Origin: Micrococcus sp.
Lineage (GTDB): Bacteria > Actinomycetota > Actinomycetes > Actinomycetales > Micrococcaceae
Direction of reading: 5' to 3'
Assembly (NCBI RefSeq): GCF_030523875.1
Contig: NZ_JAUNHR010000001.1
Coordinates: forward strand, 360-64,359
DNA length: 64,000 nt
Shown: piece by piece, positions 7,065-39,275 of the stretch
Layout: every line of letters begins with the position of its first letter
Numbering within the stretch: position 1 is the stretch's first letter
The notes under the pieces: generated by a model
What the model was told of the DNA's origin: nothing
The model's input: only the letters and a program-made list of their open reading frames with translations
The model's database searches: none
Translations under genes and position numbers: made by a program

Positions 7065-8123
7065 ATGAGCACACACCACGGCGAGTACAAGGTGGTCGGC
7101 GGCAAGCTGGTGGCCGCTGACCTGACCATCGAGGACGGCCGGATCGTCTCCGCCAGCGTCAACGGCGACTTCTTCCTGGAGCCCGACGAGGCCCTCGAGG
7201 ACCTCAACGCGGCCGTCACCGGCCTGTCCGCGGACGCCGAGCACCGGGCGATCCGCGACGCCGTCCAGCAGGGCCTGCGGCCCGAGGCCGAGCTGTTCGG
7301 CGTGGACGCCTTCGCGATCGCCTCCGCCGTGCGCCGCGCCCTCGGCAAGGCGACGACGTGGGAGGACCACGCGTGGGAGATCCTGCCGCCGCAGCCGCTG
7401 CCCATCACGCTGACGGTGGCCCTGGACGAGGTGCTCACCCGTCAGGTGGCCGAGGGGCGCCGCAGCCCCACCCTGCGCCTGTGGCAGTGGACCGAGCCGG
7501 CCGTGGTGATCGGGGCGTTCCAGTCCCTTGCCAACGAGGTGGACCCCGCCGGCGCCGAACGGCACGGGATCACCGTGGTGCGCCGCATCTCCGGCGGCGG
7601 GGCCATGTTCATGGAGGCGGACAACTGCGTCACCTACTCCCTGCACGCGCCCGCGTCCCTGGTGGACGGCCTCGAGACCGCGGAGACCTACCCGTTCCTG
7701 GACGAGTGGGTGATGGACGCGCTCTCCCGGATGGGCGTGCAGGCGTTCTACCAGCCGCTCAACGACATCGCCACGCCCGAGGGGAAGATCGGCGGCGCCG
7801 CGCAGAAGCGGGTGGGCGCGGACGGCCTGCTGCACCACGTGACCATGAGCTATGACATCGACGCGGACAAGATGCTCGAGGTCCTGCGGATCGGCCGCGA
7901 GAAGCTCAAGGGCAAGGGGGTCGCCTCCGCGAAGAAGCGCGTGGACCCGCTGCGCCGCCAGACCGGCCTCTCCCGGCCGGAGATCTGGGAGACCCTGATG
8001 GCCGTCTTCGAGGAGCGCCACGGTGCCCGCCGTGCGGAGCTCGACGAGGCCACCCTCGAGGAGGCCCGCGAGCTGGCCCGCATCAAGTTCGGCACCCAGG
8101 AGTGGCTCCACCGGGTGCCGTGA
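7065..8123 (+). CDS. lipoate--protein ligase family protein (LplA-like BPL/LPL catalytic domain)
   Basis: 352 aa with the BPL/LPL catalytic-domain pattern (RRISGGGAMFMEADNCVTYSL, KIGGAAQKR). Confidence 0.75.
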   Translation: MSTHHGEYKVVGGKLVAADLTIEDGRIVSASVNGDFFLEPDEALEDLNAAVTGLSADAEHRAIRDAVQQGLRPEAELFGVDAFAIASAVRRALGKATTWEDHAWEILPPQPLPITLTVALDEVLTRQVAEGRRSPTLRLWQWTEPAVVIGAFQSLANEVDPAGAERHGITVVRRISGGGAMFMEADNCVTYSLHAPASLVDGLETAETYPFLDEWVMDALSRMGVQAFYQPLNDIATPEGKIGGAAQKRVGADGLLHHVTMSYDIDADKMLEVLRIGREKLKGKGVASAKKRVDPLRRQTGLSRPEIWETLMAVFEERHGARRAELDEATLEEARELARIKFGTQEWLHRVP

Positions 8124-10951: not shown

Positions 10952-12196
10952 TCAGCGCGGGTCGGGCACCCTCTGGCCCTTGGACAGGACGGTCAGGCCG
11001 GACTCGGTGACGGTGTAGCCGTTGGCCTCGTCCTCGGCTCGGTCGAAGCCGATGCGGGCGCCCGCCGGGACCACCACGTTCTTGTCCAGGATGGCGTTGC
11101 GCACGTGGGCGCCCTCGCCGACGACGACGGAGTCCAGCAGCACGGACTGCTCCACCCACGCCTCGTTCTGGACGCGGACGTCGGTCGAGAGCACGGACTG
11201 CGCCACGGTGCCGCCGGAGACGACCACGCCCTGGGACAGGATCGAGTCGCCGGCCGTGCCGGGTCGGCGGGAGGCCGAGCGGACCAGCTTGGCGGGCGGG
11301 GACACGGACTGGCGCGTGTACAGCGGCCACTGCCGGTTGTAGAGGTTGAACTCGGGCCACGGCTGCACCAGGTCCATGTGCGCGTCGTAGTACGAGTCGA
11401 GCGTGCCGACGTCGCGCCAGTAGTGCTTGCCCGGGGTGCCGCCCGGGACCTCGTTGGTGGTGAAGTCGTACACGCCGGCCTCGCCGCGGGCCACGAAGGC
11501 CGGGATGATGTCCCCGCCCATGTCGTGGTCCGACTCCGGGTTCGCGTCGTCCTGGTTGAGCGCCTCCACGAGCGCATCCGTGTCGAAGACGTAGTTGCCC
11601 ATGGACGCCAGGAACTGGCCCGGGTCGTCCGGCAGGCCCGGCGTGGTCGCCGGCTTCTCCACGAACGCCTTGATGCGCCCCGGGTCCGACGGATCGGTCT
11701 CGATCACGCCGAACTGGTCGGCGAGCTCGAGCGGCTGGCGCACCGCGGCCACCGTGGCCTTGGCCCCCGAGGCGACGTGCTGGTCCACCATCTGCTGGAA
11801 GTCCATGTGGTAGACGTGGTCGGCCCCGATCACCACCACGATGTCCGGCCGGGCGTCCGAGATGAGGTTCATGGACTGGAAGATGGCGTTCGCGCTGCCC
11901 GTGAACCAGTCCTTGCCGCGGCGCTGCTGCGCAGGGACGGTGGCCACGTAGTTGTTCAGCATCGTGGACATCCGCCATGTCTCGGAGATGTGCCGGTCGA
12001 GGGAGTGCGACTTGTACTGCGTGAGCACCACGATCTCGCGGTACCGGGAGTTGACCAGGTTCGAGAGGGCGAAGTCGATGAGCCGGTAGTCGCCGCCGAA
12101 CGGGACGGCGGGCTTGGCACGGTCCGCGGTGAGCGGCATGAGGCGCTTGCCCTCACCTCCCGCGAGCACCACCGAGAGGACCTTCTTCTGCACCAT
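10952..12196 (-). CDS. glgC: glucose-1-phosphate adenylyltransferase
   Basis: [50 protein letters not shown] is the classic GlgC N-terminus. 414 aa. Confidence 0.9.
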
Positions 12197-12307: not shown

Positions 12308-13504
12308 GTGCGCATCGACATCGTGACCAAAGAGTTCCCCCCGTCCGTCTACGGCGGCGCCGGCGTCCACGTAGCCGAGCTGACCCGGGTCCTGGCCTCC
12401 CGGGCCGACGTCCGCGTCCACGCCTTCGGCGCGCCCCGGGACGCCGACTACCACGGCGCGACCGTCCACGCCTACGAGCAGCCGGCCGGGTTCGAGTCGG
12501 CGAACGGTGCGGTGCAGACCCTGGCCACGGACCTGTCGATCCTCGAGCACCTCGAGGGCGCGGACGTGATCCACTCCCACACCTGGTACGCCAACATGGC
12601 CGGCCACCTGGGCGGGCTCATGCACGACATCCCGCACGTGCTCTCCGCCCACTCCCTGGAGCCGCTGCGGCCCTGGAAGGCCGAGCAGCTCGGCGGCGGG
12701 TACGCCCTCTCCGGCTGGGCCGAGTCCACCGCCTACCACGGCGCGGCCGCCGTGATCGCGGTCTCCGAGGGCATGCGCCGGGACATCCTGCGCTGCTACC
12801 CGGACGTGGACCCGGCGAAGGTCCACACCGTGCACAACGGCATCGACACCGAGCTGTGGACCCCGCAGACCGGGTCGTCCGCCCTGGAGAAGTACGGGAT
12901 CGACCCGTCCCGCCCGTCCGTGGCCTTCGTCGGCCGCATCACGCGCCAGAAGGGCGTGCCGCACCTGCTGCGCGCCGCACTGCGCCTGCCCGAGGACGTC
13001 CAGCTCGTGCTGTGCGTCGGCGCCCCCGACACCCAGGAGCTCGCCCACGAGGTCAACGGCCTGATCGCCCGCCTGCGCGAGGAGCGCGACGGCGTCGTGG
13101 TGGTGGAGGGCATGATCCCGCGGGCCGAGGTCATGGAGATCCTCTCCGCAGCCACCGTGTTCGCGTGCCCGTCCGTCTACGAGCCCCTCGGCATCGTCAA
13201 CCTGGAGGCCATGGCGTGCGGCACCGCCGTTGTCGCCTCGGCGGTCGGCGGGATCCCCGAGGTCGTGGAGGACGGCGTGACCGGCCTGCTGGTGCCCGTG
13301 GCGCAGGTCGACGACGGCACCGGCACCCCCGTGGACGCGGACGCGTTCGCCGCGGACCTCGCCGACGCACTCACCCGGGTCCTCGAGGACCCGGCCCGGG
13401 CCGAGGAGATGGGCCGGGCCGGCCGCGAGCGCGCGATCGGGCACTTCTCGTGGGAGACCATCGCGGACCGCACCATGGAGGTCTACCGCTCCGTGGCCGG
13501 CTGA
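12308..13504 (+). CDS. glgA: GT4 alpha-glucosyltransferase (actinobacterial GlgA/GlgM-type, ADP-glucose dependent)
   Basis: MRIDIVTKEFPPSVYGGAGVHVAELTRVLA. GT4 EPLGIVNLEAMACGTAVVASAVGGIPEVV. Divergent from glgC, as in mycobacteria (Rv1212c/Rv1213). Confidence 0.85.
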   Translation: MRIDIVTKEFPPSVYGGAGVHVAELTRVLASRADVRVHAFGAPRDADYHGATVHAYEQPAGFESANGAVQTLATDLSILEHLEGADVIHSHTWYANMAGHLGGLMHDIPHVLSAHSLEPLRPWKAEQLGGGYALSGWAESTAYHGAAAVIAVSEGMRRDILRCYPDVDPAKVHTVHNGIDTELWTPQTGSSALEKYGIDPSRPSVAFVGRITRQKGVPHLLRAALRLPEDVQLVLCVGAPDTQELAHEVNGLIARLREERDGVVVVEGMIPRAEVMEILSAATVFACPSVYEPLGIVNLEAMACGTAVVASAVGGIPEVVEDGVTGLLVPVAQVDDGTGTPVDADAFAADLADALTRVLEDPARAEEMGRAGRERAIGHFSWETIADRTMEVYRSVAG

Positions 13505-20247: not shown

Positions 20248-23200
20248 TCAGGGCCGGGGCAGCTCCCGCAGTGCCTCCAGCAGCCCCTCGGCCCAGCCGT
20301 CCCAGGCGTGGCCCCGGGCGTGCCGGACCGCCGCCGGGGACATCGCCGCCCAGGCCGCCCGGTCATCCCGGATCCCGGCGAGGGCGTCCGCCCACGCCTC
20401 GGCGGTGTTGGGCCGTACGAGCAGCCCCGTGACGCCGTGCTGGACGGCGTGCACGAGCCCGCCCACCCGGTGCGCCAGCACCGGGGTGCCGCAGGCCTGC
20501 GCCTCCACGGCCACCAGTCCGTAGGTCTCCGAGGCGCTCGGCATGGCGACGGCGTCGGCGCCCCGCATCTGCTCCGCGAGCCGCTCCGGCGGCACCGGGG
20601 CGGACACGCTCACCAGGTCGGCCACGCCCCGCTCGGCGGCGAGGGCGAGGATGTCCGGCGCGTCGGGCCCGGAGGCCTCCCCGTTGACGTGCACCCGCAC
20701 ACCCGGGTCCCTTCCTTCGGCGCGTTCCCGCAGCTCGGCGAGGGCCGCCACGAGCAGGTGCGGGCCCTTGTGGGTCTGCACGCGTCCGGCGAAGAGCACC
20801 CGCAGCGGCGCGTCGTCGCCGTGGCCGGCGTCGTCCTCCGGGCCGGGCCAGGCGGCGGGTCCCTCGGGGGTGAAGACGTCGAGGTCCACCCCGGGCGGCA
20901 GCACCCGCAGCCGGCGGCGGTCCACCTCGAACAGGTCGTTCAGCTCGCGGGCCTCGGCGGGGGAGTTGACCACGAGCAGGTCCGCGGCGTGGACCAGCTC
21001 GGCCTCGGCCTCGAGGCGCTCGGGCGGCTCGGTGTGGCTCTCGTCCTCGACCACCTTCACGGCGCCCGTGGTGTGCATGGTCTGCAGCAGCGGGGCGGCG
21101 AGGTCCTCGGCGAGCGCCGCGGCGGTGGCGGCCGAGAGCCAGTAGTGGCCGTGGACGAAGGCCACGCGGCGCGCCCGTTCCCGGGCTCCGGCGTCAGCGC
21201 CCAGCAGGGGGCCGCCGGGGACGGCGTCCGAGGCCAGCCAGGTGCGGGCCGCGGCGGTGAAGGCGGCGCGGTGCACCGCGAGCTCCTCCTTGGCGACGGG
21301 TCCGTCCGGGCCGACGGGCAGCTCCACCACGGTCACGCCGGGGGCGTCGCCCTCGGCGGGCAGCTCGGTGACGCGGGCCGCGGCGCCGCCCAGCGGCTCC
21401 TCCGCGCGGGTCAGCAGCAGCATGCGCAGCCCCCGGCGGGCCAGGGCGCGGGCCGACTGGCGGACGTACACGTTCATGCCGCCCGCGTCCCCGCGCCCGG
21501 GCTGGGCGAGGGGGGAGGTGTGCAGGGAGACGGCCACGCCGACCGGCTCCGCCCCGCACAGCTCGGCGTCCACGGCGTCGTAGAGCCGGGCCACCGAGGG
21601 GGTGCGCGGCAGGTCCTCGACCGTGAGCGTGCGCCCGTCCGGATCGCCCAGGGGCACGGTCCAGTTGGGGTACTGCTCCTGCAGGGTGCCGGGCTGGTTC
21701 TGGATGCGCCGCTCGCCCACGGCGTCCACGAGGGCCACGCAGTGCAGGGCGGAGGGGGCCTGTGCCAGCAGGCGGTGCAGGCCCACCACCCGGTCCTCGC
21801 GGGTCTCGGCGCCGTCCGGGCCGGTGGCCTCGAGCACCCCCCGCTCGCGCGCGGCGGTGAGGAACGCCTCCACCTCCGCGGCGGAGCGCTCCCGCTCCCG
21901 GGCAACGTCCACGGTGTACAGGCCCAGTCGCTCGCGCAGGTCCAGGTGCACGCCCTCGAGGTAGCCGGCGGTGGGCGGCAGGTCGTGGGTGTTGACGGCG
22001 GCCAGGCACAGGCGCCGGTAGCGCTCCGGCGCAGTGGGCACGCCGTCCTCCTGCTCGAACCACAGGATGGAGGTGCCCAGGATCCCGGCCTCGGCCAGGC
22101 GGCGCTGCACCCACGGCTCGAAGGTGCCCAGGTCCTCGCCGATCACCACGACGCCGGCCCGCTGGGCCTCCAGCGTCAGGACGGCCAGCAGCACCTCGTG
22201 GTCGTACTCGACGTACGCGCCCTCGGGCGCGCCCATGCCGTCCGGGATCCACCACAGGCGGAACAGCCCGAGGACGTGGTCCATGCGCAGCCCGCCGGCG
22301 TGGGCGATCACGGTGCGCACCATGTCCCGGAACGCGGCGTAGCCGGTCTCGGCCAGGCACACGGGGTGCCAGGGGTGCTGGGACCAGTCCTGGCCCAGCT
22401 GGTTGAACACCTCGGGGGGTGCGCCCACGGACATGCCGGGCACGAGCACGTCCCCGAGCATCCAGGCGTCGGCGGAGCCGCGCGTCGCCCCGACGGCGAG
22501 GTCGAGCATCACGCCCAGGCGCATGCCCGCGGCGCGAGCCCGGTCCTGGGCGGAGGCGAGCTGGCCGTCGGCGACCCACTGCACCCAGCGGTGGAAGTCG
22601 ACGTCGTCGGCCCGTTCGGCGCGCACACGCTCGGCCTCCGCACCGCCCGGGACCCAGTCGGGGTCCTGCGGGCGTGGCGCGGGGGAGGAGGGGTCAGCGG
22701 CCTGGGCGTCGAGCCGCAGGACGGACCACAGGGCGAAGTCGTCCAGGCCCGGGCCCTGCCGACGGCGGAACTCCGCGTAGTCGGCCTCCCGCTCGGGGGT
22801 GCGGGGCGCCTGCCAGACCCGGCGCAGCGCCGGCCACAGGGCGGCCGCGGCCGCGGAGCGGTCCACGCGGCCGCCCTCGAGCAGGGCGGCCTGGGCCCGG
22901 GCGCCGGCGGCGCGCAGCTCCGCCTGCTCGTCCGCAGGCAGGGCCGCGAACTCGGGGATATCGGTCACCCGGATCAGGAGGGCGGAGAGGAACCGCCGGG
23001 ACACGGGGGAGTAGGGGGAGTCCGTGGGGTGCGGGCCCGGCTCGATCGCGTGCAGGGGGTGCAGCAGGACGAAGTCCGCCCCGTGGCCGGCGGCGTGCTC
23101 GGCCACCGCGGCGGCGTCGGCAACGTCGCCCACGCCCCACGAGTCGGCCGAGGTCACCGAGTAGCCCTGGGCGGCGACGCCCCAGCCCCGGCGGGCCAGG

Positions 23201-23715
23201 AACGGGGCCGTGGTGGTGAGCCGGTCCGGGGCGCAGATCAGCGTGGCGGTGTGGGTGGAGCCGGTGCCGCTGACCACCTCCAGCCGGTGCCAGCCCAGGG
23301 GCAGGTCGGCCGGGATCTCGAGGTCGTGGCGCACGCGCTCCTGGCCGTCCACGAGGCGGGGCTGGCCGACGGGGGCGGTCGCGACGAGCTCCCGCTCCTG
23401 CCCCTCCTCGGTGCGGACCACGGCCGTGAGCCCGGCGTCGGGCGCCAGGTGCACCGGCACGGTCTTGCGGTGCCCGCGGCGCACGGCCACGGTGGGCGGC
23501 AGCACGCGGCGCCAGGGGGCGTCCTGGGCGTCCTCGAGGGCGGTGGTCAGGCCGACGACCCCGTGTGGGTCCACCTCGACGCCCAGGGCGGCGAGCACAC
23601 GGACGAGGGTCTCGTCCCCGACGGACTGCTCCGAGCCGTCCTGCCCCGTGTACCGGGTCTGCACGCCGTGCGCGCGGGCCAGCCTGTGCAGGAGCGTGCG
23701 TGCGTTCTCAGCCAT
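20248..23715 (-). CDS. malQ: 4-alpha-glucanotransferase (MalQ, GH77) fused in-frame to an MshA-like GT4 glycosyltransferase
   Basis: N-terminal ~726 aa is amylomaltase (VIGEDLGTFEPWVQ, ILWFEQEDG). C-terminal ~429 aa is MshA-like (SLHTSPLAQPGRGDAGGMNVYV, FAGRVQTHKGP, EAQACGTPVLAHRVGG). Single open frame. Junction at 21535-21561. Confidence 0.7.
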   Translation of the reverse strand: MAENARTLLHRLARAHGVQTRYTGQDGSEQSVGDETLVRVLAALGVEVDPHGVVGLTTALEDAQDAPWRRVLPPTVAVRRGHRKTVPVHLAPDAGLTAVVRTEEGQERELVATAPVGQPRLVDGQERVRHDLEIPADLPLGWHRLEVVSGTGSTHTATLICAPDRLTTTAPFLARRGWGVAAQGYSVTSADSWGVGDVADAAAVAEHAAGHGADFVLLHPLHAIEPGPHPTDSPYSPVSRRFLSALLIRVTDIPEFAALPADEQAELRAAGARAQAALLEGGRVDRSAAAAALWPALRRVWQAPRTPEREADYAEFRRRQGPGLDDFALWSVLRLDAQAADPSSPAPRPQDPDWVPGGAEAERVRAERADDVDFHRWVQWVADGQLASAQDRARAAGMRLGVMLDLAVGATRGSADAWMLGDVLVPGMSVGAPPEVFNQLGQDWSQHPWHPVCLAETGYAAFRDMVRTVIAHAGGLRMDHVLGLFRLWWIPDGMGAPEGAYVEYDHEVLLAVLTLEAQRAGVVVIGEDLGTFEPWVQRRLAEAGILGTSILWFEQEDGVPTAPERYRRLCLAAVNTHDLPPTAGYLEGVHLDLRERLGLYTVDVARERERSAAEVEAFLTAARERGVLEATGPDGAETREDRVVGLHRLLAQAPSALHCVALVDAVGERRIQNQPGTLQEQYPNWTVPLGDPDGRTLTVEDLPRTPSVARLYDAVDAELCGAEPVGVAVSLHTSPLAQPGRGDAGGMNVYVRQSARALARRGLRMLLLTRAEEPLGGAAARVTELPAEGDAPGVTVVELPVGPDGPVAKEELAVHRAAFTAAARTWLASDAVPGGPLLGADAGARERARRVAFVHGHYWLSAATAAALAEDLAAPLLQTMHTTGAVKVVEDESHTEPPERLEAEAELVHAADLLVVNSPAEARELNDLFEVDRRRLRVLPPGVDLDVFTPEGPAAWPGPEDDAGHGDDAPLRVLFAGRVQTHKGPHLLVAALAELRERAEGRDPGVRVHVNGEASGPDAPDILALAAERGVADLVSVSAPVPPERLAEQMRGADAVAMPSASETYGLVAVEAQACGTPVLAHRVGGLVHAVQHGVTGLLVRPNTAEAWADALAGIRDDRAAWAAMSPAAVRHARGHAWDGWAEGLLEALRELPRP

Positions 23716-23903
23716 GTCCGTGAAGTCCTCCGTCGCCGTCGCCGGGTGTGCGCGGCCCGGGCCCGGCGGCGCACACGTGTCTCCACTCTAGGCGGAGCCG
23801 CAGGCCGGGGCGGTGGGGATGCACCGCCGTCGTCCGGCGACACGGGGGGCAGACGACGACGGCCCCGGTCCGCAGGGACCGGGGCCGTCGTGCTGATGAG
23901 CAG

Positions 23904-23988
23904 TGCGCGAGGGGGGACTTGAACCCCCACGTCCTTTTGGGACACAGCGACCTCAACGCTGCGCGTCTACCAATTCCGCCACTCGCGC
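23904..23988 (-). tRNA. tRNA-Leu (anticodon GAG)
   Basis: Reverse complement GCGCGAGTGGCGGAATTGGTAGACGCGCAGCGTTGAGGTCGCTGTGTCCCAAAAGGACGTGGGGGTTCAAGTCCCCCCTCGCGCA. 7-bp acceptor stem, D-arm GCGG/AATTGGTAG, anticodon loop TTGAGGT, long variable arm, T-arm GGGGG/TTCAAGT/CCCCC. No encoded CCA. Confidence 0.85.
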
Positions 23989-25431: not shown

Positions 25432-25475
25432 GGGCGGAGGCCGACGACGGCGGTGCGCGCCGTCGTCGTCCGGGC

Positions 25476-25724
25476 TCAGCCGGCGTCCAGGGTGGACGCC
25501 ACCCGCATGACGCGCCGTCGCATCCAGTGCCGGCGGGCGCCACCGCGGTAGTGCACGGAGCGCTGGAGCTCCCAGCCGCCGTACTCGGCGTGGTCCACGA
25601 GGCGGCGGCGGGCGTCGCCGAGCGACTCGTGGGGCGCCACGGTGAGGACGAGGTACTCCCACTTCTGGCCGCGGGTGATGGAGTCCAGGGTCGAGGACAT
25701 GAGCTGCTCACGCATGGCAACCAT
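25476..25724 (-). CDS. conserved actinobacterial hypothetical protein (DUF5703-like)
   Basis: MVAMREQLMSSTLDSITRGQKWEYLVLTVAPHESLGDARRRLVDHAEYGGWELQRSVHYRGGARRHWMRRRVMR. Internal ATG chosen; the upstream part of the ORF is Arg/Ala junk. Confidence 0.45.
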   Translation of the reverse strand: MVAMREQLMSSTLDSITRGQKWEYLVLTVAPHESLGDARRRLVDHAEYGGWELQRSVHYRGGARRHWMRRRVMRVASTLDAG

Positions 25725-25803
25725 GCTGGCAGACGACCGACCCGGCCGCCGCACCGGCACGGCCGCCCTGGTCGGAGCGGGGTGGGCGGGATACGGTGCA
25801 CCC

Positions 25804-26034
25804 ATGAGCTCTGACGCCCGCACCGCCCTCGAGGCCCTCACCTCCGCCCTCAACGAGCACCTCGTGGCCGCCCAGAACCGCCGCGGCGAGGACGATCCGG
25901 CCGTCGAGGCCGCGTTCTTCGCCGTCGCCGACGCGTTCGAGGCCTACGAGGACGCCCTCTACGCCGAGACCGAGGAGGTCACCCCGCTGGACCTCTTCGA
26001 CGACGAGGACGAGGACCTCTCCGACCAGGACTGA
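25804..26034 (+). CDS. small acidic hypothetical protein
   Basis: MSSDARTALEALTSALNEHLVAAQNRRGEDDPAVEAAFFAVADAFEAYEDALYAETEEVTPLDLFDDEDEDLSDQD. 76 aa, divergent from the previous gene. Confidence 0.4.
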   Translation: MSSDARTALEALTSALNEHLVAAQNRRGEDDPAVEAAFFAVADAFEAYEDALYAETEEVTPLDLFDDEDEDLSDQD

Positions 26035-26124
26035 CCGTCGCGCTCCACCGGCTGACAGGCGCCGTCCGAGCCCTGGGTCACGGCCCCGGGGAACGTCCGG
26101 GACCATGACGTACAGTGACCCCTC

Positions 26125-27001: not shown

Positions 27002-28267
27002 GTGAAGTCCTGGTCCACCCCCGCGCCCGCCCCCCTGCCCGTGCAGCCGGACCGGCTGCGGGTGTTCGACACGGCCACGCAGTCCCTCCGACACCCCGGC
27101 AACGACGCCGAGCGCTCCTCCCTGTACGTCTGCGGCATCACCCCGTACGACGCCACCCACCTGGGCCACGCCACCACGTACGTCTCCTTCGACCTCCTCC
27201 AGCGCTACTGGCGGGCCGCCGGGCTGGAGGTGGCGTACACGCAGAACGTCACGGACGTGGACGACCCGCTGCTCGAGCGCGCGGAGGCCACCGGCGTGGA
27301 CTGGCGCGAGCTCGCCGCGGACCAGACCGAGCTGTTCCGCACGGACATGGCCGCGCTGAACGTCCTGGCACCGGACCACTACGTCGGCGCCACGGAGGCG
27401 ATCGACCTGGTGGTGGACGCCGTGGAGGCGATGCTGGCCGACGGTCTGGCGTACCGCGTCCCCGGCCGGGAGGGCGAGCCCGACGGTGACCTCTACTTCG
27501 ACGTGCGGGCAGCGGAGGCCCGGGGCGGCTGGCGTCTGGGGGAGATCGGCGCGCTGAGCGCCGACGAGATGGCGGAGGTCTTCCCCGAGCGCGGCGGCGA
27601 CCCGGACCGCCCGGGCAAGCGCGACCCCCTCGACCCGCTGCTGTGGCGCGTGCGCCGCGAGGGCGAGCCGTCCTGGGACGGCCGGACCCTCGGCGAGGGC
27701 CGGCCCGGCTGGCACATCGAGTGCTCCGTGATCGCCCGCGAGCACCTGCCCGCGCCGTTCACCGTGCAGGGCGGTGGCTCCGACCTGCGCTTCCCGCACC
27801 ACGAGTTCTCCGCCGCGCACGCCACGGCCGTGGACGGCCGCCCGCTGGCCCGCACCTACCTGCACTCCGGGATGGTGGCCCTGGACGGGCAGAAGATGTC
27901 CAAGTCGCTCGGGAACCTCGAGCTCGTGTCCCGCCTGCGTGCCCGCGGCGTCGAGCCGGTGGCCATCCGCGCCGCCCTCCTGGACCGCCACTACCGGTCC
28001 GACTGGGAGTGGTCCGAGGACCTGCTCGCCGGCGCCCAGGAGCGCCTGGCCCGCTGGCGTGCCGCCCTGGAGGGGCCCCACGCAGGCGCCGGACGCGCCG
28101 TCCTGGCCGCCGCGCACACGGCGCTCTCCGAGGACCTCGACGCCCCCGCCGCGCTGCGCGTGCTCGATGCCTGGGCCGCAGGCGAGCTGCCCGGCCTCGA
28201 CGACGGGGCCGAGCCCCTCGACGTCGCCGTGGTGGCCGACGCGCTCCTGGGCCTGCGGCTGCGCTGA
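27002..28267 (+). CDS. mshC: L-cysteine:1D-myo-inositol 2-amino-2-deoxy-alpha-D-glucopyranoside ligase (mycothiol ligase)
   Basis: CysS paralogue of 421 aa (shorter than CysS). [53 protein letters not shown]. Near-collinear with M. tuberculosis MshC. Confidence 0.85.
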
Positions 28268-31209: not shown

Positions 31210-32369
31210 GCGACGCCCCCGCGTCCCCGACCCCCCACCACCCCGCCGACGCAGCCCCGCAGAACGTCCCCGCGGGCGTCACCGCGCAGGACACTCCGGC
31301 GGGCGTCACGGCCCGACGCGGCCCGCTGCGCGCCGGCCAGCGCGTGCAGATCAAGGACGCGAAGGGCCGGCTGAACACCATCACGCTCCTGCCGGGCGGC
31401 GAGTTCCACAGCTATCAGGGCGTGCTCCGGCACGACGACCTGATCGGCGGCCCCGAGGGCGTGGTGGTGCAGAACTCCTCCGGGCACGACTACCAGGTGC
31501 TGCGCCCCCTGCTCAACGACTTCGTGCTGTCCATGCCGCGCGGCGCCACGGTGGTCTACCCCAAGGACGCCGGGCAGATCGTGCAGCAGGCGGACGTCTT
31601 CCCGGGCGCGGTCGTCGTCGAGGCGGGCGTGGGCTCGGGCGCGCTGTCCATGTCCCTGCTGCGCGCCGTGGGGGACCACGGTCAGCTGCACTCCTACGAG
31701 CGCCGCGAGGAGTTCGCCGAGGTGGCCCGCGGCAACGTGGAGTCCTTCTTCGGCGGCGAGCACCCGGCGTGGTCCATCCACCTCGGCGACGCCCAGGAGA
31801 GGATGCTGGAGGTCCACGAGCCCCACTCCGTGGACCGCGTGGTCCTGGACATGCTCGCCCCCTGGGAGTGCCTCGACGCCGTGGCCACCGTCCTCGCCCC
31901 CGGCGGCGTGTGGCTGAACTACGTGGCCACCGCCACCCAGCTCTCCCGCGTGGCCGAGGCCATCCGGGACTCCGGGAAGTTCACCCAGGTGGAGGCCAAC
32001 GAGACCCTCGTGCGCGGCTGGCACCTGGACGGCCTGGCCGTGCGCCCGGACCACCGCATGGTGGCCCACACCGGCTTCCTGCTCACCGCGCGCCGCCTGG
32101 CCACCGGCGAGGAGGCGCTGCGGCTCAAGCGCCGGTCCAAGGTGTCCGAGTTCAAGGACGTGGACGTCGAGGCGTGGCGCCCGGCCGACGAGGCCCGGTG
32201 GACCCCCCAGGCGCTCGGCGAGCGCCCCGTGACGGACAAGAAGGCCCGCAAGGCCGCCAAGGAGGCCCGGCTCATGGCGCGCCGCGCGCGCGAGGCCGAG
32301 GCCGACGTCGACGCCCGGGGTCAGCGCCGCCCCGCCGCCGGCGCGGCAGGAGAGGAGCAGCATGACTGA
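31206..32369 (+). CDS. trmI: tRNA (adenine58-N1)-methyltransferase TrmI
   Basis: Rv2118c-like (VVEAGVGSGALSMSLLRAVG, LDMLAPWECLDAV). ATG overlaps the upstream TGA. Confidence 0.8.
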   Translation: MSDAPASPTPHHPADAAPQNVPAGVTAQDTPAGVTARRGPLRAGQRVQIKDAKGRLNTITLLPGGEFHSYQGVLRHDDLIGGPEGVVVQNSSGHDYQVLRPLLNDFVLSMPRGATVVYPKDAGQIVQQADVFPGAVVVEAGVGSGALSMSLLRAVGDHGQLHSYERREEFAEVARGNVESFFGGEHPAWSIHLGDAQERMLEVHEPHSVDRVVLDMLAPWECLDAVATVLAPGGVWLNYVATATQLSRVAEAIRDSGKFTQVEANETLVRGWHLDGLAVRPDHRMVAHTGFLLTARRLATGEEALRLKRRSKVSEFKDVDVEAWRPADEARWTPQALGERPVTDKKARKAAKEARLMARRAREAEADVDARGQRRPAAGAAGEEQHD

Positions 32370-34125
32370 GCACCCCATCGGCAGCGCCGGACAGGACGGG
32401 GCGGCCCTGCGTCGTCGCCTCGAGGAGGCCCGCGAGCTGCTGCGCCAGGAGCAGTCGCGCGCCGAGCGCCTGCAGCACCAGCTGGACGCGGCCCAGCGCC
32501 ACGGGGCCCAGCTCTCGGAGCGGCGCCGCGAGGCGAGGGCCCAGCTGGACGTCGCCGCGCGCAACAACCGCCGCATGGTGGACCTGCTCGAGGCGACCCG
32601 CGGGGAGATCACCACCCTCAAGGAGGCCCTCGACGCCACCACCAAGCCGCCCTTCACCTTCGCCCGCCTGGAGTCCGTCCTGCCGCCGCGTGAGCCGGTC
32701 GAGGGCGTGGAGACGGGCGCCGTCGTGCGCGGCGGCGCGGACGTCGTCCAGAACGGCCGGCGTCTGCGGGTCAGCGTGTCGCCGCTGCTCGAGCCCGAGC
32801 GCCTGACGCCGGGCGCGGAGGTGCTGCTGGACGAGTCGAGCACCGTCGTCGGCGTCGCGGACGCCAGCCCCGCCGGCCAGCTGCTGCGCGTGAAGGAGGT
32901 GCTGGACTCGGGGGACCTCGTCCTGGCCGGCACCGCCGACGAGGAGCGCCTGGTCCGCCGGGCCCCGGCCCTGGAGGGCGTGCCGCTGCGCCACGGGGAC
33001 GCCGTCACGGTGGACCCGCGGATCGAGTGGGCGCTGCGGCACGTGGAGCTCTCCGAGGTGGACGACGTCCTGCTCGAGGAGGTCCCGGACGTCACGTTCG
33101 AGGACATCGGCGGCCTCGGCCCGCAGATCGAGCGCATCCGCGAGGCGGTGGAGATCCCGTTCCTGCACCCCGAGGTGTACCGCGAGCACGGGCTGCGCGC
33201 GCCGAAGGGCATCATGCTCTACGGCCCGCCCGGAACGGGCAAGACCATGCTCGCCAAGGCCGTGGCCAACGCGCTGTCCGCGCGCTCCGCGGACGGCTCC
33301 CGCTCCTTCTTCCTGAACATCAAGGGCCCCGAGCTGCTGAACAAGTACGTGGGCGAGACCGAGCGGCAGATCCGGATCATCTTCGACCGGGCCCGCGAGC
33401 GCGCCGCCGCCGGGTTCCCCGTGGTGGTGTTCTTCGACGAGATGGAGTCCCTGTTCCGCACGCGCGGCTCGGGGGTGTCCTCGGACGTGGAGACCACGAT
33501 CGTCCCGCAGCTGCTCGCCGAGATCGACGGCGTGGAGTCCCTGGACAACGTGATCGTGATCGGCGCGTCCAACCGCGAGGACATGATCGACCCGGCCGTG
33601 CTGCGCCCGGGCCGCCTGGACGTGAAGATCCGCGTGGACCGCCCGGACGCCCGCGGCGCGGTGGACATCATGGCCCGCCACCTCACCGACGACGTCCCGC
33701 TGCACGCGGACGAGGTGGCCGCCGCCGGCGACGCCGAGCAGGCCCGCGAGGACCTGATCGCCGCCGCCGTGACGGCCCTGTACGAGCGCTCGCCCCGCAC
33801 CGCGCTGGCCGAGCTCACGGACGTCACGGGCGCGGCGCACACGCTGCACCTGGCGGACCTGGTCTCGGGCGCCGTCGTGGCGGACGTGGTGGACCGCGCC
33901 AAGCGCTCCGCGGTGCGCGACCTGCTGGCCGCGGACATGGCCGACGACGCCCGCGGGCTGCGGCAGAACCACCTGCTGGACGCCGTGGACGCGGTGCTGG
34001 CGGACCAGGCGGACCTGCTGTCCACGGTGGCGCCGGGGGAGTGGGCCCGCACCTCGGGCTGGCGTGGCCCGCGCCTGGCCGGGCTGCGCATGCTGCCCGG
34101 CGGCACGGCGGGGGCGGGCGCATGA
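32362..34125 (+). CDS. arc: proteasome-associated AAA ATPase ARC/Mpa
   Basis: N-terminal coiled coil. Walker A GPPGTGKT. VVFFDEMESLF. Upstream of dop. ATG overlaps the trmI stop. Confidence 0.9.
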   Translation: MTEHPIGSAGQDGAALRRRLEEARELLRQEQSRAERLQHQLDAAQRHGAQLSERRREARAQLDVAARNNRRMVDLLEATRGEITTLKEALDATTKPPFTFARLESVLPPREPVEGVETGAVVRGGADVVQNGRRLRVSVSPLLEPERLTPGAEVLLDESSTVVGVADASPAGQLLRVKEVLDSGDLVLAGTADEERLVRRAPALEGVPLRHGDAVTVDPRIEWALRHVELSEVDDVLLEEVPDVTFEDIGGLGPQIERIREAVEIPFLHPEVYREHGLRAPKGIMLYGPPGTGKTMLAKAVANALSARSADGSRSFFLNIKGPELLNKYVGETERQIRIIFDRARERAAAGFPVVVFFDEMESLFRTRGSGVSSDVETTIVPQLLAEIDGVESLDNVIVIGASNREDMIDPAVLRPGRLDVKIRVDRPDARGAVDIMARHLTDDVPLHADEVAAAGDAEQAREDLIAAAVTALYERSPRTALAELTDVTGAAHTLHLADLVSGAVVADVVDRAKRSAVRDLLAADMADDARGLRQNHLLDAVDAVLADQADLLSTVAPGEWARTSGWRGPRLAGLRMLPGGTAGAGA

Positions 34126-37105: not shown

Positions 37106-37588
37106 TCAGACCCGCTCCCACGAGGCCACGGGCCCCTCCTCGAGCTCGAACAGGGGGTGCAGGTCCGGGACCGCCACGTGCTCCCAGCGGGCCAGCCACT
37201 CGGGGCTCCGGGCGGCGAGCTTGGCGCGCAGGTGGGCCCACTCATGGTCCCGCTGGCCGGTGGTCGCCGGGATGGGGGCCAGGCGCAAGGGCAGCACCAG
37301 CTCGCCGGGGGCGCCGTCGTCGCCGGCGGGCGGGGTCTCCAGGGGCCGGTCGATGCGCGAGGTGTCGAACCGGTACCCGCGCGCGGACGCCTCCAGGGCG
37401 ATCCCGGTCAGGAACGCCCCGATCGCCGACGCCGGGTCCCCGTGGTCGCGGAAGCGCTCGAGCTGGGGGTGGTTCCGGTAGCCGCGCGTGCGGCGGGCCA
37501 GCGCGGCCTGGGCCAGCAGCGCCTCCCGCCACGCGCCGGTCAGGCCCTGGCGGTCCAGGTGCCTCGGGTGCAGGGTCCACAGTCGCAT
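37106..37588 (-). CDS. pdg: pyrimidine-dimer DNA glycosylase / UV endonuclease (T4 endonuclease V family)
   Basis: MRLWTLHPRHLDRQGLTGAWREALLAQAALARRTRGYRNHPQLERF is the Pyr_excise family signature. About 18 kDa, as for M. luteus Pdg. Confidence 0.75.
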   Translation of the reverse strand: MRLWTLHPRHLDRQGLTGAWREALLAQAALARRTRGYRNHPQLERFRDHGDPASAIGAFLTGIALEASARGYRFDTSRIDRPLETPPAGDDGAPGELVLPLRLAPIPATTGQRDHEWAHLRAKLAARSPEWLARWEHVAVPDLHPLFELEEGPVASWERV

Positions 37589-37701
37589 GCGCCCATCCTG
37601 GCACCCCGGCCGACGCCCGCCGACGCCGGTCGCCCGGCCCCGGCCCGCCGACGTAGTCTCGGAGCAGACGCACCGACCACCCCCTGATCAGGAGGAGCAC
37701 C

Positions 37702-37890
37702 ATGTCCCAGGAGCAGATCCGCCCCCGTCCCGCCGGCGGCGACGACGACGCCCCCGCCGCGGGCCAGGCCCAGGTCAAGGCGCAGACGCAGGACACCGGC
37801 CTGGACGGCCTGCTGGACGAGATCGACTCGGTGCTGGAGACCAACGCCGAGGAGTTCGTCAAGGGCTTCGTCCAGAAGGGCGGCCAGTGA
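37702..37890 (+). CDS. pup: prokaryotic ubiquitin-like protein Pup
   Basis: 62 aa, acidic, ends ...FVKGFVQKGGQ (C-terminal GGQ). AGGAGG RBS. Confidence 0.9.
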   Translation: MSQEQIRPRPAGGDDDAPAAGQAQVKAQTQDTGLDGLLDEIDSVLETNAEEFVKGFVQKGGQ

Positions 37891-39275
37891 CCGCCGAGGC
37901 CCGCCGGGTGATGGGACTGGAGACGGAGTACGGGGTCCAGCACTGGAACCCCGACGCCCGGCCGCTGAGCGCCGAGGAGGTGGTGCGGTACCTGTTCCGC
38001 CCCGTCCTCGCGTGGGGCCGCTCGTCCAACGTCTTCGTGTCCAACGGCTCGCGGCTCTACCTCGACGTGGGCTCCCACCCGGAGTACGCCACGGCCGAGT
38101 GCTCCACGCTGGACGAGCTGATCGCCTCGGACGCCGCGGGCGACCGGATCCTGCAGGGCCTGATCGGTCAGGCGGAGGCCGCCATGGCCGCGGACGGGAT
38201 CGGCGGCTCCCTGCACCTGTACCGCAACAACGCCGACTCCTCGGGGAGCTCCTACGGCTCGCACGAGAACTACCTGTTGCGCCGGCGCACCGAGTACCGG
38301 CGCCTCACCGAGGCGCTGGTCCCCTTCCTGGTCTCCCGGCAGATCATGGTGGGCGCCGGGCGCGTGGTGCCGGCGGGGACGTGGCCGGAGGGCACGGGGG
38401 AGGCGCACTTCGCCTTCTCCCAGCGCGCCGACTTCGTCCAGGAGGGCGTCTCCTCCTCCACCACGCGCTCCCGCCCCATCATCAACACGCGGGACGAGCC
38501 GCACGCGGACGCGTCCCTGTACCGCCGCCTGCACGTGATCGTGGGGGACACCAACCTCTCCGAGCCCACGCACCTGCTGCGCTTCGGCGCCACGGACCTC
38601 ATGCTGCGCATGATCGAGGCGGGCTTCCCCCTCGGCGACCACCGCGTCACCCACCCCACGCTGGCCGTGCGGCAGGTCTCCCACGACCTCACGGGCACCG
38701 CCCGCATCGCCCTGCGCGAGGGCGAGGCCAGCGCCCTGGACCTGCAGGAGCACTACCTCGACTGTGCCCGCCGGTTCGTCGATGCCGAGGGCCCCCACCA
38801 CGAGCGCGTGGGCGAGGTCCTGAACCTGTGGGGCACGGTGCTCGACGCCGTCCGCTCCCAGGACTTCGGCCCCATCGAGGACACGATCGACTGGGCGATC
38901 AAGCTGCGCCTGCTCGAGCGGTTCCGCGAGCGCGACGGCCTCGACTGGTCCTCGCCGCGGATCGCCCAGCTGGACCTGGCCTTCCACGATATCGCCCCCG
39001 GGCAGGGCCTCTACGCGATGCTGCGCGACCGCGGCGCCGTGCGCCGGGTCCTGCCGGAGGGGGCGGGCGAGGCCGCCGTCGACGCCGCCCCGTCCACCAC
39101 GCGCGCGGCGGTGCGGGCCGACTTCATCGCCCGGGCCCGCGAGCGCGGGATGGACTACGCGGTGGACTGGACCACGCTGAAGCTGACCGACCACCCGCTG
39201 CACACGATCAGCCTCAAGGACCCGTTCGACACGGCGCTCGACGCCGTCGACGCCCTGTTCGCGCGGGTCGGCTGA
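37887..39275 (+). CDS. pafA: Pup--protein ligase PafA
   Basis: RRVMGLETEYGV, RLYLDVGSHPEYATAEC and YGSHENYL are collinear with M. tuberculosis PafA. GTG overlaps the pup TGA. Alternative ATG at 37911. Confidence 0.85.
   Translation: MTAEARRVMGLETEYGVQHWNPDARPLSAEEVVRYLFRPVLAWGRSSNVFVSNGSRLYLDVGSHPEYATAECSTLDELIASDAAGDRILQGLIGQAEAAMAADGIGGSLHLYRNNADSSGSSYGSHENYLLRRRTEYRRLTEALVPFLVSRQIMVGAGRVVPAGTWPEGTGEAHFAFSQRADFVQEGVSSSTTRSRPIINTRDEPHADASLYRRLHVIVGDTNLSEPTHLLRFGATDLMLRMIEAGFPLGDHRVTHPTLAVRQVSHDLTGTARIALREGEASALDLQEHYLDCARRFVDAEGPHHERVGEVLNLWGTVLDAVRSQDFGPIEDTIDWAIKLRLLERFRERDGLDWSSPRIAQLDLAFHDIAPGQGLYAMLRDRGAVRRVLPEGAGEAAVDAAPSTTRAAVRADFIARARERGMDYAVDWTTLKLTDHPLHTISLKDPFDTALDAVDALFARVG

Follow-up and report, generated by a model that had tools for sequence, protein, structure and literature searches.

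The window analysed here is the whole 64,000-nucleotide stretch of Micrococcus sp. contig NZ_JAUNHR010000001.1 (74.5% GC), and our subject is one open reading frame (ORF) on its minus strand that joins MalQ, a 4-alpha-glucanotransferase of glycoside hydrolase family 77 (GH77), to an MshA-like glycosyltransferase of family 4 (GT4). An earlier note made from the letters of the sequence had drawn attention to this ORF and explained it as a genuine fusion, a recent stop-loss mutation or a base-call error. The coordinates, GT4 motifs and junction codons that it quoted are all present in the window sequence, and the features of the ORF are as follows.

20248..23715, minus strand: fused ORF with an ATG start and 1155 codons without internal stop (1155 aa, ~123 kDa)
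23726..23731, minus strand: GGAGGA, a Shine–Dalgarno-like element read from the sequence, 10 nt upstream of the ATG at 23715–23713
21559..23715, minus strand: MalQ half (aa 1–719), a long-form actinobacterial 4-alpha-glucanotransferase with N-terminal domains, assigned by TIGR00217 and Foldseek
23227..23502, minus strand: MalQ_N, N-terminal beta-sandwich domain (aa 72–163; PF21226, 73.6 bits, cutoff 24.1)
21649..23163, minus strand: GH77 catalytic domain (aa 185–689; PF02446, E 3e-93, 313 bits against a cutoff of 25)
21538..21558, minus strand: junction CGAEPVG (aa 720–726), with C720 in place of the ancestral Arg
20248..21537, minus strand: GT4/MshA-like half (aa 727–1155 plus stop), assigned by TIGR03449, a PDB match, residue mapping and Foldseek

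The fused protein is identical to the public entry WP_303124613.1, which is named '4-alpha-glucanotransferase [Micrococcus sp.]'. In its GT4 half, Pfam recognises a GT4 N-domain (Glyco_trans_4_4/Glyco_transf_4, aa 745–946) and a GT1 C-domain (Glycos_transf_1, aa 970–1125), and the motifs HTSPLAQPGRGDAGGMNVY, FAGRVQTHKGP and EAQACGTPV are present. Across the junction, the coding strand reads GAG CTG TGC GGG GCG GAG CCG GTC GGC GTG GCC GTC TCC CTG CAC, where TGC (21556–21558) encodes C720 and GTG (21535–21537) encodes V727; the tryptic peptide across the junction is LYDAVDAELCGAEPVGVAVSLHTSPLAQPGR (residues 711–741). Upstream, a tRNA-Leu(GAG) gene (23903–23988, minus strand) and, after it, a GC-rich hairpin at about 23860–23885 separate the fusion ORF from the M20 peptidase gene, so the ORF probably has its own promoter within about 140 nt upstream of the ATG. 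A sigma-70 promoter scan found no promoter-like site, a result that is uninformative at this GC content.

The fused architecture is widespread in the genus. Among 5.8 billion proteins searched, fused proteins of 1109–1175 aa make up 15 clusters (90% identity), with full query cover and identities from 96% down to 50%. These clusters include M. luteus (820 members), M. lylae, several Micrococcus sp. and metagenomic relatives, and beneath them come the ordinary 705–795-residue MalQ proteins of Citricoccus, Arthrobacter and their relatives. When a 325-residue query spanning the junction was run against 1.84 billion 50%-identity representatives, two proteins, both from Micrococcus, matched across the junction, and the remaining matches covered one half each. 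The same ORF occurs with identical synteny in independent assemblies of M. luteus, M. lylae and an M. lacusdianchii-like strain, and genome-length contigs (2.4–2.5 Mb) of M. luteus and M. lacusdianchii assemblies carry the fused form. The fused proteins share the junction motif AEL-R-x3-PVG-[IV]-x-V-S-x-HTSPL, with C720 of the window at the position of R. Against an 87%-identical relative, the ratio of nonsynonymous to synonymous substitution rates (dN/dS, Nei–Gojobori) comes to 0.15 in MalQ and 0.23 in GT4, as calculated from the closest pair alone, distant pairs being unreliable with synonymous sites saturated or biased at a third-position GC content (GC3) of ~97%; these values indicate purifying selection on both halves. 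As judged from the sequences, the fusion is natural, fixed and common to the core Micrococcus species, which bears out the first of the three explanations.

The other two, a base-call error at 21556 or a strain-private stop-loss there that merged two normal genes, have only the resemblance of TGC to TGA in their favour, and we regard them as next to impossible. Identical protein sequences occur in NCBI, ENA and Logan assemblies, and a fusion found across species at 50–96% identity is neither an artefact nor a very recent event. The codon itself also argues against them. The earlier note had supposed that TGC arose from TGA, with MalQ once ending at ...DAEL*, and suggested a comparison of the malQ 3′ end in related genomes. 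No TGA is found there: the aligned codon is CGC, CGG and CGC in fused relatives, and CGG and CGT in Citricoccus and M. terreus, respectively, both of which are unfused and have their stop codon elsewhere. Because the codon is Arg in all fused and unfused relatives examined, Arg was the ancestral residue and this position never held a stop codon. The Cys in the window would be a private Arg-to-Cys substitution (CGC to TGC) of this strain.

The unfused relatives also reveal how the two genes came together. Citricoccus sp. SGAir0253, Citricoccus sp. NPDC055426 and M. terreus have a separate malQ and a separate, co-directional GT4 gene of 414–434 residues, with a stop codon and 10–20 nt between them, whereas the window has a single ORF. 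The pair lies on the same strand and in the same neighbourhood as in the window (mshC, uppP, DUF5703 and M20, then malQ and GT4, followed by MaoC, SDR and thiolase), with 53–56% identity to the window in MalQ and 45–49% in GT4. The unfused MalQ continues for 3–27 codons beyond the Arg before its stop, the unfused GT4 starts 5–20 codons ahead of the SLHTSPL strand, and in Citricoccus sp. NPDC055426 the two genes are in different reading frames; therefore, the fusion needed a deletion or indel, and a stop-codon substitution alone would not have produced it. In Enteractinococcus, Paeniglutamicibacter and one Arthrobacter, the GT4 gene occupies the same slot without malQ, in the order PAC2, mshC, uppP, DUF5703, ACAD and M20, then GT4, then MaoC, SDR, thiolase, TetR and ACOX. 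The presence of this malQ-less slot in the outer genera gives the order of events as GT4 near mshC, then malQ insertion, then fusion. Synteny shows that in one Micrococcaceae subclade an MshA-like gene came to lie beside the M20 peptidase gene, a few kilobases from mshC, that malQ then entered just upstream, in the same orientation, in the Citricoccus/M. terreus/Micrococcus lineage, and that in the core-Micrococcus ancestor a small deletion or indel took out the MalQ tail, the stop codon, the 10–20 nt spacer and the GT4 leader. This event brought the final helix of MalQ up to the opening beta-strand of GT4.

A further difference concerns an acyl-CoA dehydrogenase gene (385–399 aa), which lies between DUF5703 and M20 in Citricoccus, M. 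terreus, Enteractinococcus, Paeniglutamicibacter and Arthrobacter (L001 6025–7224, L004 2834–4006, L090 4202–5377 and L091 3820–4977, against 25432–26124 in the window) and is absent from the window and from the M. luteus, M. lylae and M. lacusdianchii-like loci. Since the gene is present in the outer genera and absent from the fused loci, it was lost in core Micrococcus.

MalQ, a GH77 amylomaltase, catalyses the disproportionation of maltodextrins. The MalQ half scores 287 bits on NCBIfam TIGR00217 (malQ), above the cutoff of 205.65, and the acidic residues D479 (RMDH), E527 (GEDLG) and D578 (THD), which we assign by motif as the putative GH77 catalytic triad, are invariant in a 16-sequence alignment. 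In the AlphaFold2 model of the fused protein, this half resembles C. glutamicum amylomaltase (5JJH/5B68) in Foldseek with a template modelling (TM) score of 0.90–0.91 and 43% identity over ~720 columns. C. glutamicum MalQ (5B68/5JJH) and the E. coli structure 4S3P are full-length proteins with N-terminal domains, as is the half described here. Taken together, the sequence and predicted structure identify the N-terminal 719 residues as a complete long-form GH77 amylomaltase (MalQ). What distinguishes it is its C-terminus: unfused relatives have a short tail of 3–27 residues beyond the 'AELR' motif, whereas the fused MalQ lacks this tail and runs straight into the second enzyme. Fusions of MalQ with another carbohydrate-active enzyme are known from the GlgX–MalQ (NF011082) and TreY–MalQ (NF011077) types, but in these the partners are alpha-glucan enzymes and MalQ takes a different position in the chain, while here the partner is an enzyme of thiol-cofactor biosynthesis. 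The window protein belongs to neither family; only its MalQ region matches them, with 483 and 297 bits against cutoffs of 2148 and 2511 bits, respectively.

MshA, a retaining GT4 enzyme, carries out the first step of mycothiol synthesis, in which GlcNAc passes from UDP-GlcNAc to 1L-myo-inositol-1-phosphate. The best NCBIfam match of the GT4 half (the last 428 residues) is MshA (TIGR03449, EC 2.4.1.250), and in a PDB sequence search C. glutamicum MshA (CgMshA) came first (E 2e-68), followed by sucrose-phosphate synthase (4e-34) and GlgM (1.5e-12). The GT4 half of the AlphaFold2 model superposes on UDP-bound CgMshA (3C4Q, 34% identity) with a TM score of 0.88–0.90 and a root-mean-square deviation of 2.8 Å, and both the GT-B fold and the HTSPLxQPGxGDxGGMNVY signature of CgMshA (3C48/3C4Q/3C4V) are found in it. 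A GlgM/GlgA-type identity was also considered for this half and rejected, since glgA_Coryne gives 76 bits where MshA gives 318. The residues of the inositol-phosphate site, G23, N25, K78, Y110, H133, T134 and R154 in CgMshA, correspond to G746, N748, K809, Y858, H881, T882 and R900 here. K78, Y110, T134 and R154 are reported to bind the phosphate (Vetting et al. 2008), and the residue letters agree at those positions. In the UDP/donor site, R231, K236, E316, G319, L320 and E324 of CgMshA correspond to R978, K983, E1063, G1066, L1067 and E1071, and F318 is replaced by Y1065. The MshA catalytic residues, whose absence on alignment the earlier note had named as an argument against a functional MshA domain, are thus not missing, and 12 of the 13 fused sequences keep all inositol-phosphate and UDP contacts checked. 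For MshA, PMC12182360 describes the functions of G23 and H133, and the UDP-site residues are covered there and in PMC2628429. The remaining sequence is P0015 (Micrococcus sp. metagenome-assembled genome (MAG), 1116 aa, 50% identity), the most divergent fused homologue, with K78 replaced by T and Y27 by V (CgMshA numbering), substitutions that may reflect a relaxed or altered function in the P0015 lineage. Compared with MshA, the GT4 half differs in its position at the C-terminus of MalQ without a start codon of its own, and in an Ala/Gly-rich insertion of ~25 residues near aa 820–850.

Some observations weigh against this identity. The GT4 half scores 318 bits on TIGR03449, under the equivalog cutoff of 462.5, so that the earlier designation of an 'MshA-type GT4' is upheld by residues, fold and context but not by the NCBI model. 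It is also among the faster-evolving genes of the neighbourhood, with 83% identity in the closest pair against 87–99% for the others, and a second, canonical MshA may exist elsewhere in the Micrococcus genome. The score, however, does not discriminate well. TIGR03449 scores fall continuously across the family from 491 to 304 bits: Arthrobacter 474–491, Paeniglutamicibacter 441, Psychromicrobium 426, Tersicoccus 401, Citricoccus 369–382, Neomicrococcus 366, Enteractinococcus 349, M. lylae 336, the window 318 and M. luteus 306, the Micrococcus range of 304–336 being the lowest. The Tersicoccus gene fails the cutoff although it adjoins ino1. Because the scores form a continuum, and because this ino1-adjacent gene and others also fail, a sub-cutoff score is weak evidence against MshA identity. 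MshA-like genes below the cutoff in many Micrococcaceae genera carry the name 'glycosyltransferase' only, and mshA is systematically under-annotated in the Micrococcaceae by NCBI's MshA model.

Features of the genomic context are the following.

27002..28267, plus strand: mshC, encoding the cysteine ligase of the mycothiol pathway, 3.3 kb from the start of the fused ORF (TIGR03447, 579 bits against a cutoff of 485)
10952..12196, minus strand: glgC, divergent from the next gene
12308..13504, plus strand: GlgM/GlgA-type GT4 (glgA_Coryne, 563 bits); the pair lies 7–9 kb from the fusion

The distance to mshC is as the earlier note had given it, and its linkage to the GT4 locus is conserved in Citricoccus, M. 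terreus, Enteractinococcus, Paeniglutamicibacter, one Arthrobacter, M. luteus, M. lylae and the M. lacusdianchii-like strain. It is mshC that places the locus in the mycothiol pathway, mshB and mshD being absent from the 64-kb window. The usual actinomycete surroundings of mshA are different: both the downstream DUF2596 gene (PMC4255298) and the alr...ino1 arrangement of Arthrobacter are lacking around the fusion. Context was typed on loci matching the widespread motif DAGGMNVY (at least 600 matches, with no Micrococcus genome among the matches listed), and in most Arthrobacter-group genomes MshA was found in an alr-tsaE ... mshA ... ino1 context. In this Arthrobacter/Pseudarthrobacter group, mshA lies between alr-tsaE and ino1 (inositol-1-phosphate synthase), 3–5 kb from ino1 (L003, L015, L018, L022, L042, L045, L046, L053, L066, L074 and L080), unlike the mshC-linked arrangement of Micrococcus and Citricoccus. 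In a neighbour-joining tree, all Micrococcaceae MshA-like sequences form one clade, ordered roughly by genus, within which the fused Micrococcus proteins are monophyletic. The M20/mshC locus of the two Arthrobacter genomes examined contains no GT4, in keeping with the alr...ino1 position of MshA in other genomes of the Arthrobacter group. Together, the single clade and this empty slot fit one MshA per genome that changed location, rather than two long-standing paralogs. Within the window there is no other MshA-like gene, the only other GT4 being the GlgM/GlgA-type enzyme adjoining glgC, and among the top 120 GT4 matches no second MshA-like protein from a named Micrococcus was found beyond unfused M. 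terreus and MAG proteins.

These data bear on the possibility that the fused GT4 is a neofunctionalised paralog that drifted from MshA to another donor or acceptor, possibly one linked to alpha-glucan, with a canonical MshA elsewhere in the genome making GlcNAc-Ins-P. If true, such an alpha-glucan link would explain the joining to MalQ. The family's lowest MshA scores, the faster evolution of the GT4 half, the K78-to-T change in P0015, the nearby glgC and GlgM/GlgA-type genes and the possible second MshA copy would all fit it. In contrast, retention of the substrate contacts in nearly all fused sequences, an mshC-linked slot older than the arrival of malQ, the lack of a second paralog clade in the tree, the empty slot in the two Arthrobacter genomes and the absence of another Micrococcus-named protein from the top GT4 matches argue against a paralog, and we consider it unlikely. 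An arsenate-mycothiol transferase appears in a published annotation of an M. luteus genome (PMC8852316), and mycothiol use in the genus is therefore expected. Thus, the C-terminal 429 residues are most likely, as part of a bifunctional protein, the Micrococcus version of MshA, with its activity predicted from sequence and fold.

The AlphaFold2 model, built from 119 sequences, has a mean predicted local distance difference test (pLDDT) score of 88.4 and a predicted TM (pTM) score of 0.80; in Foldseek, no solved chain spans both halves. At the junction, a helix (706–721) is followed by ~3 residues and then a strand (725–730) with pLDDT ~88, so the model predicts a rigid joint and not a flexible linker. 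This matters for whether a separate MshA is also made from the same ORF, either because translation starts again near V727 or because a protease cuts the junction. The earlier note had read GGGGCGGAG and the GTG behind it as a relic ribosome-binding site and start codon, and in this strain a Shine–Dalgarno-like purine run is indeed followed 9 nt later by GTG; locus L089 also has GTG codons at the V727 position. Comparison refutes the relic: GTG is a Val/Ile codon inside the opening beta-strand of GT4, M. luteus has ATC instead, and the purine run ahead of it varies from species to species. A conserved internal Shine–Dalgarno element with a GTG start was accordingly rejected as a candidate. G-rich runs and GTG codons are frequent at the GC content of the window, the predicted short helix-to-strand joint would be a poor protease site, and no promoter-like site came out of the scan mentioned above, which carries little weight at this composition. 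Two products from this ORF are therefore very improbable, and translation would yield a single 123 kDa protein.

Our preferred interpretation, which we hold to be probable, is a bifunctional polypeptide that combines maltodextrin disproportionation with the first step of mycothiol synthesis. The two active sites would work independently, and the main effect of the fusion would be to hold two genes that already formed an operon pair at 1:1 expression under a single promoter and ribosome-binding site. We also considered a 'Rosetta stone' interpretation, in which the fusion reports a functional link between alpha-glucan turnover and mycothiol/inositol metabolism in Micrococcus. The link could take three forms: the rigidly attached MalQ might control MshA activity according to whether it has bound glucan, the glucose that MalQ releases might be channelled into the supply of inositol-phosphate and UDP-GlcNAc, or the GT4 might have an altered substrate, with a second MshA making mycothiol. 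We regard this interpretation as rather improbable. With the glgC/GlgM pair 7–9 kb from the fusion, the alpha-glucan genes (glgC, glgM-type, malQ) and the mycothiol genes (mshC, mshA-like) are interleaved within ~17 kb.

Elsewhere in the window, a lipoate-protein ligase gene (7065–8123, plus strand, 352 aa) aligns over the full length of the fused 'LplAB' model NF053751 with 545 bits against a cutoff of 550; an LplAB-type ligase is another small-plus-large subunit fusion. The proteasome ATPase gene (32362–34125) and pafA form a pupylation region. The ORF for PafA (Pup ligase; 37488–39275, plus strand, 595 aa) probably starts ~138 codons downstream of its called start, because the family match begins only at residue 139.

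Both enzyme families are well known and the fused protein is public in hundreds of copies, but the architecture is unreported in the papers found, and its second function is hidden by annotation. A full-text literature search found no paper on a MalQ–MshA fusion, and the supplements of one comparative-genomics paper mention neither mshA nor malQ. Nearly all public fused proteins are named only '4-alpha-glucanotransferase'. The probable mshA of Micrococcus is therefore concealed in a gene of that name, and pathway reconstructions would wrongly call the first mycothiol step missing. The locus is also a clean and datable example of gene fusion, through relocation near mshC, insertion of a neighbour and in-frame deletion. 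The rigid linker of ~3 residues is unusual and, if it were to couple the two activities, storage-glucan turnover would be linked to redox-buffer synthesis. In summary, this is an ordinary but under-annotated domain fusion, whose practical value lies in the annotation of mshA in Micrococcus, with a small chance of a real link between glucan and mycothiol metabolism.

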